Positions 1 through 4,326 of a stretch of 64,000 bases of DNA are shown here, piece after piece. Under the pieces are notes generated by a model. It was not told the origin of the DNA. It did not search any database and worked only from the letters and a program-made list of their open reading frames with translations. Position 1 is the stretch's first letter, and the number at the start of each line of letters is the position of its first letter. This stretch comes from Bacillota bacterium (GTDB lineage Bacteria; Bacillota_I; Bacilli_A; Acholeplasmatales; Acholeplasmataceae), in the NCBI GenBank assembly GCA_018817915.1, contig JAHISX010000043.1, positions 2,591-66,590 of the forward strand. Direction: 5' to 3'. The position numbers and the translations under genes are program-made.

Positions 1-1
1 T

Positions 2-241
2 CTAGGAAGTTTTGGTATAATGAGTTATATAGTTCGTTCAACACCAAGTTTGTTTAAAGGTGTGACAGATACAACCTTAAATTTACTTAGTAGATTGAAT
101 ACCTCACTTTCACTAAACACAACAACAGCCTTTTTAGCAGTCACATATGGAGCAGTAGGATCATTTGTTAACTCACTATCCAACTTATTATTTGATGACA
201 ATAATGAAATTGTCATTGATTTATATGCTGGATGTGATTAG
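2..241 (+). CDS. 3' end of an ORF open to the left window edge; hypothetical, possibly the C-terminal tail of a polymorphic toxin
   Basis: No stop in this frame from base 2 to TAG 239-241. The listed ATG at 20 has no convincing RBS. A small membrane-protein gene follows 11 nt later, as in toxin/immunity pairs. No recognisable motif. Confidence 0.3.
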   Translation, partial: LGSFGIMSYIVRSTPSLFKGVTDTTLNLLSRLNTSLSLNTTTAFLAVTYGAVGSFVNSLSNLLFDDNNEIVIDLYAGCD

Positions 242-252
242 GAAGGATTGTT

Positions 253-753
253 ATGAATAAAACGAAAACAAAGTATCTCGTATCACCATTCATATTATTT
301 GGAATATTATTTATTGTTATTATAAGCTATTTTGCATTTGTACTGACATTCATTATTTTACCGACACCATCTGAAGAAAATCGTTCTCAACTTACTACTA
401 TATTATTAGTTATCATACTTGGTGGGTTTCCAACATTCACATTAGCATTCAGCCTAAACAAATGTTTTTCAATGATTTCTTTTGATGAAGAAGGTGTTCA
501 TAAGTCGTTATTTAACCGGTTCTTTAAGCAAGATTTTTTATGGAAAGATATAAAAGAGGTAAGACTCTTTAATAGAGTTGACCAGTGGTTATTTATAAGC
601 AAACTATCCACTGAAGGAATGTCTTATTATCAACTAATCAAAAACAGAGATATTATACAAATGAGTTTCAACCCAAATATACTAAAAGCAATCAGAAAAT
701 ATTCAAGTTTGAAGATAGAAAATCTAAAAGAAAATCAAATTAATGAAGTATAA
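253..753 (+). CDS. Small membrane protein: two N-terminal TM helices plus a ~90-aa soluble domain (bacterial PH / YdbS-like layout); candidate immunity protein
   Basis: RBS aggaagga (240-247) lies 5 nt before ATG 253. Two hydrophobic helices (LVSPFILFGILFIVIISYFAFVLTFIIL; LTTILLVIILGGFPTFTLAFSL) precede ISFDEEGVHK...FLWKDIKEVRLF, a pattern typical of membrane-flanked bacterial PH domains. Confidence 0.5.
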   Translation: MNKTKTKYLVSPFILFGILFIVIISYFAFVLTFIILPTPSEENRSQLTTILLVIILGGFPTFTLAFSLNKCFSMISFDEEGVHKSLFNRFFKQDFLWKDIKEVRLFNRVDQWLFISKLSTEGMSYYQLIKNRDIIQMSFNPNILKAIRKYSSLKIENLKENQINEV

Positions 754-897
754 TTCATTATTAAAGTTCAGTGAAAATGTGCTAAAATAACCTCAAGTTT
801 ATTTAAGGGATTATCACTACTAATGCTCTAAGAATATTCTCAGATAAGGAGAAATAATCTAATAGCTTCTAAGTATGCGTATTGTGCCAACAACCCA

Positions 898-1440
898 GTG
901 ATGTATGTTGATCCAAGTGGAACTACTCCGCAGATTGTTATTTTTCTTTTGAAATTAGCAGCGGGTTCTGCCGTTGCAGATGGTCCTCTTCCAATTGGTG
1001 ATACAATAGCTATATTATTGCTAATAACAGCTGGATTAATAATGATAGCAGATATAACAGAGACAAATTATTCAAAAGTTAACAAAAATAATTATTATGT
1101 TTACACACTGAGTGATGGTGAAGGTGTATTTTATGTTGGTATTACAAAAAACCTTGAGAGAAGAAAAGCTCAACATGAAGCAACTTTTGGGCCAGGGTTC
1201 GATATGCTAAGTACAGGCCCAATGAATTTGGCACAAGCACGCGTAATGGAAACTAGTTTGATTGTTTCCTATGGAACTAGAGAGATATATCAAATGGGTG
1301 AAACGCTCTTTGGAGGTTCTAAAATTATGGGAAATCAAATATTAAGTATATCCAATAGACGATATCCTACTTCACTTCTAATTCACAAATTAGAGAGTGA
1401 TGCACTTTTATGGATGGAGAGATTAGGTCCGAGACGATGA
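898..1440 (+). CDS. Orphan RHS/WapA-type polymorphic-toxin C-terminal cassette with a GIY-YIG nuclease-like domain
   Basis: The frame is open from 832 (after TAA 829-831) and reads ...NLIASKYAYCANNPVMYVDPSG, the RHS/YD core-end signature. Downstream is YVYTLSDGEGVFYVGITKNLERRKAQH...ARVMETS, which matches GIY..YIG..R..E. No YD-repeat body or RBS lies upstream; GTG 898/ATG 901 is the only start. Confidence 0.7.
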   Translation: MMYVDPSGTTPQIVIFLLKLAAGSAVADGPLPIGDTIAILLLITAGLIMIADITETNYSKVNKNNYYVYTLSDGEGVFYVGITKNLERRKAQHEATFGPGFDMLSTGPMNLAQARVMETSLIVSYGTREIYQMGETLFGGSKIMGNQILSISNRRYPTSLLIHKLESDALLWMERLGPRR

Positions 1441-2465
1441 AAAAAGAATACTATTTTGAAGATTTACTCATACAAGAAATTTATATGGATTACAAACAAA
1501 ATATTATTGATAAAATGACCAATGAGAAGGCAACAGAGAAAACCCTTGAGGACTACAGTGAGATCTTTGATGAAAATACACCACAATCAAGATTAGCTAT
1601 GATTGCATTAGCCTATTATCAGTGGAGTATAGGTAGATTACTTCCTATCATCAAAGAGAAAGCTCGATTCACATATCGAGATTTTATGGATTACATTGAT
1701 GAATATTATGAGATGGATATCACAGGGAACTATGTTAATACTTTATATAAACCTGACATCACTCATCAAAAGGTAATTGATCAAGTGGAAACAATTATGC
1801 AGCTTCTTGACACTGAAATGCCCAAAATTAAGCGTTTAATCTCGTATAGAGAATATGAAATTAAAGGTTTAGAAATAAATGGCATATATGCCTATAAAAT
1901 TCCATGCGAAGCAGTTGAAGAACAAACAGCAGATGCTTGTTATATGTATTTTTACTTTTTAAAAGATGTTCTTCCTCCCAGTAGGGATAAGTATATCTAT
2001 ATCTATAATATTTATTCTGTAGGAAGAGTTCTCACATTAGATGAAGTTCAGAATGTTGGATTTATTCCGAGTTGTTTTCATTATAGACAGAATCTTCATC
2101 AGAAGAAGCAAGTATTTGAAGAGCGAACGTCAAATGTGTTTCTAGAATTTGTCCATCCTAAACATTATAAATGGCAATTTGTTTGGAATATGAACACTTT
2201 CCAAGCAAAAAAAGGGAACCAAAAATCCATTTATTTAGGTCAAGCTCAAAAGATATTACTACCTGTATATGAAGCTGATAGAATGAAAGAACCACGAAAC
2301 TCATTCAGTCCTGCTCTTTTTGAAACCTTAGAGTTAAGCATTACAACAAGAGCAAAAGGCTATAAAAACTGTGACATTCCACACTTCATTAATGGAAAGA
2401 TTTTATTTGATCCTGAAGTAGAAGTATATGAAGAAATCATAGTTGAAGAGATCCCTATTATATAA
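1437..2465 (+). CDS. Hypothetical protein; candidate cognate immunity protein of the GIY-YIG toxin cassette
   Basis: ATG 1437 overlaps the toxin stop (ATGA, 1437-1440), so the two are translationally coupled. 342 aa, no signal peptide or TM, no motif I recognise. Start chosen at MKKEYYFEDL rather than the ORF-track 1410. Confidence 0.5.
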   Translation: MKKEYYFEDLLIQEIYMDYKQNIIDKMTNEKATEKTLEDYSEIFDENTPQSRLAMIALAYYQWSIGRLLPIIKEKARFTYRDFMDYIDEYYEMDITGNYVNTLYKPDITHQKVIDQVETIMQLLDTEMPKIKRLISYREYEIKGLEINGIYAYKIPCEAVEEQTADACYMYFYFLKDVLPPSRDKYIYIYNIYSVGRVLTLDEVQNVGFIPSCFHYRQNLHQKKQVFEERTSNVFLEFVHPKHYKWQFVWNMNTFQAKKGNQKSIYLGQAQKILLPVYEADRMKEPRNSFSPALFETLELSITTRAKGYKNCDIPHFINGKILFDPEVEVYEEIIVEEIPII

Positions 2466-2743
2466 AGAACGAATAAAGTTATTGTCTATTATTTCAGAGA
2501 GCACATCGTTTATTGGAAATTTTCACAGACTAATAACTCATTGAGTTTAGTTAGCTACATTTCGTAAAAAAATATGTTGCATATTGTTCTAATACTCCAT
2601 TAATAGATATTGATCCAAACAGCAAGAATGGCTAACTTTGATTACTATTTTAATTTATCTATATCGTATACAATCTGGAAAAAAACTAATCATTATCTTT
2701 ATCAATGAGATAAGTGCAAAATTTTTATTTTATAAATGAATAC

Positions 2744-2784
2744 AAAAAAGATGATTGTGAAATATCTGCACAATCATCTTTTAT
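2744..2784. terminator. Bidirectional intrinsic terminator between the toxin/immunity cassette and gpmI
   Basis: Perfect 12-bp stem aagatgattgtg (2748-2759) / cacaatcatctt (2769-2780) with a 9-nt loop. A-run on the 5' side and T-run on the 3' side. Sits 19 nt from the gpmI stop. Confidence 0.7.
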
Positions 2785-2802
2785 ATATAACTTAAAAACA
2801 AT

Positions 2803-4326
2803 TTATTTAATGATTAGACTATGGCCTGTCATTTCTTTTGGTTGCTTAACATCAAGTAAATCTAATAATGTTGGTGCAACATCACATAATGAACCAGTAC
2901 CAACTTTAATATCTTTTTTAGTTATTAAAACTGGAACAAGATTGGTTGTATGAGCCGTATGTGGTTCTCCATCTTCGCTTCTCATCTTTTCTGCATTACC
3001 ATGATCTGCGATCACGATAGCAACACCACCAATAGAAAGGATTGCTTCAACGACCTCATGAGTACATTGATCAACTGTTTCTACAGCTTTAATTGCTGCT
3101 GGAATTGATCCTGTATGACCAACCATATCAGGATTAGCAAAGTTTAAAATCATCGTATCAAATTTACCTGATAAGACTGCTTCTACAGCTCTATCTTTAA
3201 CTTCAAATGCACTCATTTCAGGTTGTAAATCATAGGTAGCAACTTTAGGAGATTCTACAAGAATTCTTGTAGCACCTTCTAATTTTCTTTCTTGTCCACC
3301 ATCAAAGAAGAAGGTGACATGGGCGTATTTTTCAGTTTCAGCAATTCTAAGTTGCTTAAGACCAGCATCAGCTATGACTTCACCATAAAGATTATTTAAG
3401 ACTTGAAGTTCATAAGCAAGAGGTCCTTTAACAGTCTTGTTGTAATGCATCATAGAAACAAAGAATATATCTGTTGGTACATTTTTAGGATCAAAACTTG
3501 CCTTACCTTCAGTATGGTAAATATTTGCTTCACTTGGGTTAGAAAAGGCTGTAGCAATTCTTATCGCTCTATCTGGTCTAAAATTAGCGAATATAATTGA
3601 ATCGTGATCACCAATTAAACCTTTTTCATCTACAACAAATGGTACGATGAATTCATCAGTGATGCCAGCATCATAAGATACCTGTGTGCCAACAAGTGCA
3701 TCATCAAATTTCTTTCCAGTACCTAAAATCATATTATCAATTGCTAATTGAATGCGATCCCAGTTGTTATCACGATCCATCGCATAATATCTGCCAGATA
3801 CTGTAGCAACTTTCATTCCATGATCAATTAAAGTCTTTAAATAACCTAGTCCTGAGACTTGCGGTGTATCTCTACCATCCATGAAGGCATGAAGATAAGG
3901 TGTTATCCCTTGCGATACTGCTAAATCATGAAGTGCCATGATATGTGTTGGATATGCATGAACACCACCATCACTGACGAGTCCAAAGATATGAAGCTTG
4001 CTATTGTTTTTTTTAGCATGATCAATGGCGTCAAGAAATGCTTGATTTTTAAAGAATGAACCGTCTTTAATTGCGACATTGATTCTAGTTAGTGATTGAT
4101 AAACAACACGTCCGGTACCTAAGTTTAAGTGACCAACTTCACTATTACCCATTTGTCCATCTGGTAACCCTACATATTCACCACTAGCTTCTAATACATT
4201 ATTTGGATAATCTTTAAATAATTGATCTAAAAATGGTTTTTTAGCAAGTGATACTGCGTTGCTATCACTTGATGGAGCAAGTCCATAGCCATCCATAATA
4301 ATTAATGCTGCAAATTTTTTATTCAT
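2803..4326 (-). CDS. gpmI: 2,3-bisphosphoglycerate-independent phosphoglycerate mutase
   Basis: 507 aa. N-terminus LIIMDGYGL...SNAV, MGNSEVGHLNLGTGR and C-terminal ADHGNAE...HT are hallmark iPGM motifs, and the length is as expected. Confidence 0.95.
   Translation of the reverse strand: MNKKFAALIIMDGYGLAPSSDSNAVSLAKKPFLDQLFKDYPNNVLEASGEYVGLPDGQMGNSEVGHLNLGTGRVVYQSLTRINVAIKDGSFFKNQAFLDAIDHAKKNNSKLHIFGLVSDGGVHAYPTHIMALHDLAVSQGITPYLHAFMDGRDTPQVSGLGYLKTLIDHGMKVATVSGRYYAMDRDNNWDRIQLAIDNMILGTGKKFDDALVGTQVSYDAGITDEFIVPFVVDEKGLIGDHDSIIFANFRPDRAIRIATAFSNPSEANIYHTEGKASFDPKNVPTDIFFVSMMHYNKTVKGPLAYELQVLNNLYGEVIADAGLKQLRIAETEKYAHVTFFFDGGQERKLEGATRILVESPKVATYDLQPEMSAFEVKDRAVEAVLSGKFDTMILNFANPDMVGHTGSIPAAIKAVETVDQCTHEVVEAILSIGGVAIVIADHGNAEKMRSEDGEPHTAHTTNLVPVLITKKDIKVGTGSLCDVAPTLLDLLDVKQPKEMTGHSLIIK

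Follow-up and report, generated by a model that had tools for sequence, protein, structure and literature searches.

A probable orphan rhs-CT/immunity module with a predicted GIY-YIG nuclease tip in a member of the Acholeplasmataceae

Region 832–2465 of a 64,000-nucleotide stretch of bacterial DNA (hereafter the window) very probably constitutes an orphan rhs-CT/immunity module, in which an RHS tip has become detached from its YD-repeat shell and is accompanied by its cognate immunity gene. The window corresponds to positions 2591–66590 of contig C81 of genome G000, a metagenome-assembled genome (MAG) of the family Acholeplasmataceae that is 95% complete. What the analysis shows comprises the anatomy of the sequence, the family membership of its products, its genomic context, the synteny of toxin and partner genes and purifying selection. 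The parts of the module, all on the plus strand, are as follows.

832–921: orphan leader, consisting of unrelated sequence at 832–867, which includes AAGGAG at 846–851, and an RHS core-end remnant, SKYAYCANNPVMYVDPSG, at 868–921
928–1056: hydrophobic linker with two predicted helices (residues 34–48 and 52–75, from hydropathy) and the motif DGPLPxGD
1090–1437: predicted GIY-YIG (Tox-URI1-type) nuclease domain, from PF01541, conserved residues, and fold and profile searches
1093–1104 (Y88/Y91), 1132–1134 (Y101), 1162–1164 (R111) and 1174–1176 (H115): predicted catalytic residues
1240–1251 (R137/E140) and 1333–1335 (N168): further predicted catalytic residues
1437–2465: 342-residue cytoplasmic protein of an unnamed family, candidate cognate immunity protein, whose start overlaps the toxin stop (ATGA, 1437–1440)

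Anatomy of the orphan leader

After a TAA at 829–831, a frame of 202 codons (832–1440) opens with EYSQIRRNNLIASKYAYCANNPVMYVDPSG... (EYSQIRRNNLIASKYAYCANNPVMYVDPSGTTPQ...) and closes with TGA at 1438–1440, as a first-pass annotation made from the letters alone had read it. Residues 13–30 of the toxin align with positions 58–75 of the 76-position RHS core model TIGR03696 (21.3 bits, E 2.9e-4), a score that falls under the cut-off because only the tail of the model is present, and the same site was recovered at 23 bits in a genome-wide profile search. The 18-residue remnant thus matched contains YCANNPVMYVDPSG, which bears the core-end motif PxxxxDPxG and aligns with the core ends of the rhs genes of the genome at the tip junction, while base-by-base comparison with real rhs genes confines the homology to between about 868 (AAGTATGCGTATTGTGCCAAC...) and about 921, that is, to 17–18 codons at both the DNA and the protein level, close to the 20 or so codons first estimated. 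In characterised RHS proteins the core end is the site of self-cleavage. The first-pass annotation had also stated that neither a repeat body nor a ribosome-binding site precedes the remnant. The former statement holds, since the frame is bounded by the stop at 829–831 and the 5′ flank is occupied by the candidate immunity gene of another module, which encodes a 166-residue membrane protein; the latter is wrong, given the AAGGAG at 846–851 within the leader. Behind this box the in-frame candidates for a start are a non-canonical ATA at 862, 10 nucleotides on, followed by GTG at 898 and ATG at 901. The conserved methionine codon of the core (ATG in NMYAYC), which is the start of many other orphans, is AAG in the GIY-YIG orphan.

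Predicted nuclease tip and its relatives

We conclude that the tip domain is a predicted GIY-YIG nuclease of the Tox-URI1 type. It matches PF01541 at 23.1 bits, the cut-off being 22.6, and a paralogous toxin on contig C26 reaches 30.1 bits. The Tox-URI1 signature has been given as ‘Y, YxG, R, [RK]xxE, N’ for a clade that is usually fused to RHS repeats (Zhang et al., 2012, PMC3482391), and all of its residues are present in the tip (Y88/Y91, Y101-V-G, R111, R137-x-x-E140 and N168), together with H115; the invariant columns of a 15-sequence toxin alignment are correspondingly Y, V-Y, Y-V-(G), R, H, R-x-x-E and N. A profile of the toxin family searched against the PDB matches I-TevI (E 0.0034), UvrC and SLX1. 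The AlphaFold2 model of the tip has a predicted local distance difference test score (pLDDT) of 72 overall and above 83 over residues 11–70, and every Foldseek match to it at a probability of about 0.9 or higher is a UvrC GIY-YIG domain (maximum 0.99), with lower matches to a UPF0213 protein (0.75) and then to Slx1, T4 endonuclease II and Hpy188I. The GIY-YIG signature proposed at first reading is therefore supported by the hidden Markov model, the invariant catalytic residues and the PDB profile search, with weaker matches from the fold search, and hydropathy likewise bears out the two hydrophobic segments that had been placed ahead of it. The same linker recurs in P0011, in P0015 and in an orphan of genome G090; the paralogue on C26 has a different one.

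This toxin clade is small. An exhaustive HMMER search with the tip (window 1051–1437) against 1.84 billion representative proteins matched only 22 of them at E ≤ 0.001, and a profile search of genome contigs with an 8-sequence toxin alignment located the clade in 6 of 172 Acholeplasmataceae genomes. Among the near relatives P0006, P0007, P0012 and P0015 are orphans behind RHS core ends, and P0008, P0011 and P0013 are ends of RHS bodies cut by contig edges, with core sequence of the form YDxxGN...RYRGYRYD...YYLNSRYY. On the Acholeplasmataceae chromosome OY781159.1 (L026) the tip terminates a YD-repeat frame that runs off the locus, and in G074, a genome of the same genus, it terminates at least 623 residues of shell. 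In these relatives (L026, G074, P0008, P0011 and P0013) the putative toxins of the clade tip genuine RHS bodies. The clade, a rare subclade of Tox-URI1, carries a conserved extra C-terminal segment, SISNxRY...ESDxLLL.

Two loci with relatives of the toxin present rearranged rhs genes. On one Acholeplasmataceae chromosome a 274-residue open reading frame (ORF; L027:4459–5283) directly upstream of the local GIY-YIG orphan has an RHS-type N-terminal region that runs straight into a short C-terminal part, the YD shell being absent, and looks like an rhs gene collapsed by deletion. In the Bacillota MAG MM_PC_MetaG.mb.5, within L023:742–2892, an IS3-family transposase pair lies directly upstream of a 281-residue RHS fragment with a related GIY-YIG tip, and here an insertion sequence, not a recombinase cassette, seems to have interrupted the rhs gene.

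Candidate immunity protein

The ATGA overlap between toxin stop and downstream start at 1437–1440 is real and, judging from its coordinates, the C26 paralogue keeps a GTGA overlap at the same place. The 342-residue product, in which no motif had been recognised at first reading, indeed finds no match in Pfam, NCBIfam, PHROGs or PADLOC, and a Pfam scan relaxed to E ≤ 1 gave only a chance-level SSXT match, the outcome being similar for four relatives. Nor was there a match to the immunity families of Tox-URI toxins (Imm14, Imm26, Imm44, Imm51 and Imm54, and Imm9/12/39 for Tox-URI2), the presence of each Imm model in the Pfam copy being unchecked. Word-indexed homologue searches with the protein alone and with two alignments retrieved nothing beyond the query, its paralogue and one further protein, and a profile of the partner family, assembled from the genes adjoining the toxin relatives, matched nothing in the PDB.

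The genes adjoining the toxin relatives nevertheless present a consistent picture. A large ORF devoid of Pfam domains lies 3′ of the toxin, at −10 to +35 nucleotides, in all 12 of the 12 relatives with a readable flank, the complete partners being 271–342 residues in length. Significant similarity links 11 of these 12 partners, the one at L022 alone having no detectable link: the partner proteins P0002 and that of L026 are 38% identical over 224 residues (E 2e-47), P0002 and P0029 are 36% identical over the first 70 residues (E 5e-9), and the chain continues from P0029 through P0030 and P0027 to L023. Across ten pairs the similarity matrices of toxin and partner are correlated (Pearson 0.86, Spearman 0.41, Mantel p ~0.007). 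Conserved adjacency and co-variation across relatives thus support the pairing of toxin and immunity gene suggested at first. By sequence reading the 342-residue protein has neither a signal peptide nor a membrane segment and is predicted to be cytoplasmic, as an inhibitor of a nuclease located in the cytoplasm should be. We take it to be the putative cognate immunity protein, from a family absent from the libraries searched, which would neutralise the toxin; its helical N-terminal ~80 residues, conserved throughout the family, would most likely form the toxin-binding surface. Although large for such a protein, as had been remarked, its size is not exceptional, a 322-residue candidate of the leucine-rich-repeat (LRR) type being encoded in the same array. 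The 14-3-3-like helical Foldseek matches of its structural model, with E ≥ 0.37, were rejected as uninformative.

Comparison of window 1051–2465 with the paralogous module at C26:270–1678 bears on the history of both genes. The toxins are 64–66% identical and the partners 85%, and the homology runs ~140 nucleotides beyond the immunity stop. The ratio of nonsynonymous to synonymous divergence (dN/dS) is 0.17 for the nuclease domain and 0.15 for the partner, values which place both predicted genes under purifying selection. The synonymous divergence itself is 1.38 for the nuclease domain and 0.47 for the immunity gene, and this threefold gap points to a mosaic history of the pair and indicates that the putative immunity genes are of mosaic origin or have undergone gene conversion. 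The two paralogous immunity proteins may cross-protect.

rhs genes and host

A genome-wide check for a full-length YD/RHS gene with a matching core end, which the first-pass annotation had proposed, located one intact rhs gene (C53:5223–11972), which encodes 2246 residues with an N-terminal signal-like segment and RHS_repeat matches, scores 83 bits on the core model and is the sole protein of the genome with the RHS_repeat family. A 785-residue rhs fragment spans contigs C21 and C85, the left end of C53 also bears a core fragment, and the short orphans, in which 1–26 codons precede the motif, number at least 12 genome-wide. The place where a parent gene had been expected, to the left of the window, fared differently: the 2590 bases there hold only two orphans before the contig ends. 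The possibility that genetic code 4 is used (TGA read as tryptophan, and hence the toxin stop read through) was rejected, since long housekeeping and RHS frames appear to be open under table 11 with tryptophan encoded by TGG.

The closest toxins are encoded on two complete chromosomes from the Acholeplasmataceae, the family of G000. No penicillin-binding protein (PBP) transpeptidase and no FtsW/RodA were detected in G000, the controls being detected in 10 of 14 control genomes, and the host is therefore regarded as wall-less. WapA of Bacillus subtilis is a Sec-exported, wall-associated YD-repeat toxin whose tips are tRNases. In the present system, as with WapA, a monoderm encodes a YD/RHS protein that carries an N-terminal signal sequence, shows the same core-end motif and has an immunity gene downstream, but the tip is of the GIY-YIG type and not a tRNase, and the host lacks the peptidoglycan machinery, so that WapA-style wall anchoring cannot apply. 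The label ‘Gram-positive WapA-type’ used in the first-pass annotation accordingly does not fit this host. From its N-terminus, the RHS protein would have to be secreted, or held in the membrane after Sec export. RHS cores were found in 61 of 172 Acholeplasmataceae genomes, spread over 12 of 20 genera, and a literature search on RHS in this family found nothing. That RHS weaponry is common in wall-less Acholeplasmataceae raises the question of how a wall-less producer would display and fire a shell protein, possibly at wall-less targets. In one genus with genomes of 0.5–0.8 Mb the RHS frames reach ~1850 residues, a large investment for small wall-less genomes.

Layout of the orphan array

From the contig start, the C81 array runs co-oriented through orphan A, orphan B, the GIY-YIG orphan and a vestigial core end, so that the GIY-YIG module is third in order and the last complete unit; the housekeeping genes gpmI (minus strand) and then eno adjoin the right edge of the array. 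The other members of the array are:

C81:118–684, left of the window: orphan A, frame YYANNPVMYTDSDG...
C81:688–1653, after orphan A: 322-residue leucine-rich-repeat protein (LRR_R13L1-DRL21, E 3.5e-7)
C81:2217–2828, plus strand, the 3′ end being window 1–241: toxin tip of orphan B, glycine-rich and hydrophobic, whose frame opens with FVVVTYGYITPVMNIDPHG... outside the window and holds ...YITPVMNIDPHG...
253–753, plus strand: 166-residue membrane protein with hydrophobic segments, directly 3′ of the orphan B stop, candidate orphan B immunity protein
2555–2635, plus strand: vestigial fourth core end, LHFVKKYVAYCSNTPLIDIDPNSKNG up to the stop, also read as KKYVAYCSNTPLIDIDPNSKNG up to the stop, with ~80% identity to the leader that the following orphan has in the paralogous array (L014/C26)

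The LRR protein is a candidate immunity protein of the LRR type, similar in size to the 342-residue partner, and a 127-residue ORF lies beyond it, also 3′ of orphan A. The tip of orphan B, which had no match in Pfam, is probably membrane-active, and the 166-residue protein behind it had no family match in Pfam or NCBIfam. The leader of orphan B, TGGTTACTTATGGATACATTACACCTGTAATG, matches the conserved run of 20 nucleotides that is seen after recombinase stop codons (see below), and no recombinase gene lies upstream of it. The vestigial core end departs from the L014/C26 leader after GATCC and reaches a stop seven codons later, past DPNS; it is what deletion has left of the next orphan and marks the right edge of the array, beside gpmI.

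Serine recombinase genes at RHS core ends

Large serine recombinase genes adjoin orphans on contigs C74, C53 and C26. The genome has 11 such genes, in two of which a core-end remnant begins 20–21 nucleotides past the stop codon, and homologues of the recombinase clade are present in 10 of 172 genomes of the family. The junctions between recombinase gene and core end were located at:

C74:3193–3260
C53:1281–1310 (minus strand)
C26:4100–4160
loci L055–L068

In G000 (C74 and C53), G076, G096 and G169, ACTCCAGTGATGTA..., a core-end remnant, stands 20–21 nucleotides past the recombinase stop and is followed by a tip. The remnant on the recombinase side has the motif (I/M)TPVMY..D..G, and the junction consists of the 20 nucleotides plus ACTCCAGTGATG. 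On C26 of G000 and in G084 the same 20 nucleotides and ACTCC(A/G)GT are retained, and non-RHS DNA then follows right after CCAGT/CCGGT, while in G049, G083 and G072 a spacer of 95–115 nucleotides with a hairpin and a TATAAT box separates recombinase and remnant. Overall a core-end remnant lies no more than 500 nucleotides downstream in 10 of the 13 recombinase homologues with readable downstream sequence; no additional left-half core sites turned up when the sequence upstream of these genes was searched. This pattern suggests an attachment site inside the coding sequence of the RHS core end.

We tentatively propose that tips in the Acholeplasmataceae are swapped by a dedicated large serine recombinase resembling TnpX/TndX, with an attachment site ...ACTCCAGT/GATGTA... 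in the core-end coding sequence, and not by homologous recombination; a literature search on site-specific tip swapping found no description of such a mechanism. If the proposal is true, small cassettes of tip, immunity gene and recombinase would place a new warhead in frame in the rhs gene and displace the previous tip downstream, the C81 array would be a stack of displaced tips, and the GIY-YIG module could be re-armed by the same enzyme. The leader of the GIY-YIG module itself is of the other type and includes genuine core codons, no recombinase gene adjoins the module, and its origin by this route is uncertain.

Proposed mechanism and alternatives

In the mechanism that we propose for the orphan module, the tip once ended, or could end, a full-length RHS protein from which it is now detached. 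Its 18-residue core-end remnant would correspond to the self-cleavage site of characterised RHS proteins, the two-helix hydrophobic linker would help passage across the membrane into the target cell, and the metal-dependent GIY-YIG/Tox-URI1 endonuclease would degrade target-cell DNA, while the 342-residue protein would bind and block the nuclease in the producer and its kin. Deployment would be expected only if the tip were joined to an RHS shell, for example that of the presumably Sec-exported 2246-residue protein on C53. The tip is at present most likely silent or only read through, and its immunity gene would protect against neighbours firing the same toxin.

The first-pass annotation had proposed that such a displaced module could be swapped into a full-length gene by recombination. 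Its status as an orphan is upheld by the core end and by the gene content of the genome, but the homologous swap is doubtful, as the leader and the rhs gene on C53 have only about 49–54 nucleotides in common, which are 82% identical and contain no perfect run longer than 11 nucleotides. In the Salmonella case of such a swap the shared tract is 522 bp at 95% identity (Koskiniemi, 2014, PMC3967940), and homologous exchange, although possible in principle, is disfavoured here because the tract is so short and diverged by comparison. The homology does not suffice for easy RecA-type recombination, the module may never be redeployed, and several further observations also weigh against our interpretation of the region as an orphan toxin/immunity module. 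The PF01541 alignment extends no further than position 32 of the 78 in the model and exceeds the cut-off by just 0.5 bits, and the Foldseek matches of the tip are weak, with a best E of only 0.027 and template modelling (TM) scores of 0.4–0.57 on a model of pLDDT 72. The AlphaFold2 model of the 342-residue protein, built from an 8-sequence alignment, is poor (pLDDT 54) except for its helical N-terminal part (residues 10–125). A scan of window 1–3000 for promoters and terminators revealed nothing above shuffled controls. The parent gene of the C81 array was not found because the left end of the contig has no assembly link to other contigs, as judged by a k-mer overlap search. Finally, nuclease activity, neutralisation, expression state and delivery route are properties that we infer from sequence.

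Some of these points would also suit a toxin half that is a relic, no longer joinable to a shell and kept only by linkage to an immunity gene useful against neighbours in which the toxin is still fired, an explanation which we consider unlikely. It would account for a tract shared with the intact rhs gene that is so far below that of the sole experimentally documented swap, for the AAG in place of the conserved core methionine codon, for the missing promoter signal, for the reduction of the next downstream module to a stump and for immunity paralogues that are much closer (synonymous divergence 0.47) than the nuclease domains (1.38). Yet the ORF is intact, every catalytic residue is kept and the nuclease domain has a dN/dS of 0.17, although that selection may date from the time when the tip was attached to a shell. 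There is a modest chance that the module was installed, and is movable again, by a site-specific large serine recombinase acting on the core-end coding sequence. The spacing of recombinase stop, 20–21 nucleotides, remnant and tip in several genomes of the family, the change to non-RHS DNA straight after CCAGT/CCGGT at two loci, the 10 of 13 homologues with a nearby remnant, the recombinase-side leader of orphan B immediately upstream and a homology too short for RecA-type recombination all argue for it. Against it stand the leader of the GIY-YIG module, which belongs to the other class and has seven genuine core codons before NNPV, for which classical ‘C-terminal displacement’ is an equally good explanation, and the absence of a neighbouring recombinase gene; moreover, neither an empty/occupied site pair nor a circular form was seen, and the crossover point is a deduced one.

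The two genes might otherwise act inside the producer as a free-standing pair of the toxin-antitoxin kind (for example in addiction or abortive infection), translated from GTG 898, ATG 901 or AAGGAG-N10-ATA 862. The AAGGAG at 846–851 would agree with this, gene callers predict such orphans as separate proteins, and in other genomes the remnant of some orphans is preceded by a TATAAT-like box and a methionine codon. However, in the closest relatives the tip is part of one polypeptide with an RHS body, the AAGGAG is not followed at a workable spacing by any canonical start, a promoter signal is lacking, and the hydrophobic linker and core end make sense only in a delivered tip, which makes a free-standing pair very unlikely. 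The profile match to I-TevI could also be taken to mean that the GIY-YIG domain is not a toxin at all and is instead the homing endonuclease of a mobile intron or intein-less element; this is scarcely credible for a domain that sits directly behind an RHS core end, forms one protein with RHS shells in relatives, lacks the kind of DNA-binding extension seen in I-TevI and is always accompanied by a co-varying partner gene.

Relation to known systems

RHS orphan modules and GIY-YIG (Tox-URI) tips are both already described, and in this respect the core finding is ordinary. The tip resembles the N-terminal domain of UvrC, the catalytic domain of I-TevI and Slx1, which are its best fold and profile matches and have equivalent catalytic residues, but it lacks their repair or homing partner domains, and the identity is 17–24% with weak match statistics. 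It shares with the Tox-URI1 toxins (PMC3482391) the catalytic signature and the typical fusion to RHS repeats; it differs in belonging to a rare subclade with the extra C-terminal segment and in having a partner that matched none of Imm14/26/44/51/54 in the Pfam copy searched. This GIY-YIG toxin clade is compact and rare, and its large, unannotated partner family represents a candidate new class of GIY-YIG nuclease inhibitor.

‘C-terminal displacement’ is reported for the orphan rhs-CT/rhsI modules of Enterobacteria (Jackson, 2009). As in those modules, the tip here retains part of the core end, with a dedicated immunity gene behind it, and the units stand in co-oriented stacks downstream of rhs genes, in a genome that also has an intact full-length rhs gene. 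The differences are equally clear: the host is a wall-less monoderm with Sec-type RHS proteins and no type VI secretion system (T6SS) context, and the core tract shared by the rhs-main/orphan pair of Salmonella Typhimurium is of quite another length and identity than the ~54 nucleotides at 82% found here (PMC3967940). The very short homology tract and the exact junctions between recombinase gene and core end make this family suited to testing site-specific tip swapping. A further difference from the enterobacterial orphans is that the arrays are here interspersed with genes for serine recombinases and AAA_14/DUF4143 ATPases. Genes of the latter kind end immediately before orphan tips at C26:2823–4157, C74:5547–6818, L014:261–1466 and L014:10015–10965, and on C26 one of them lies between the recombinase gene and the next orphan.

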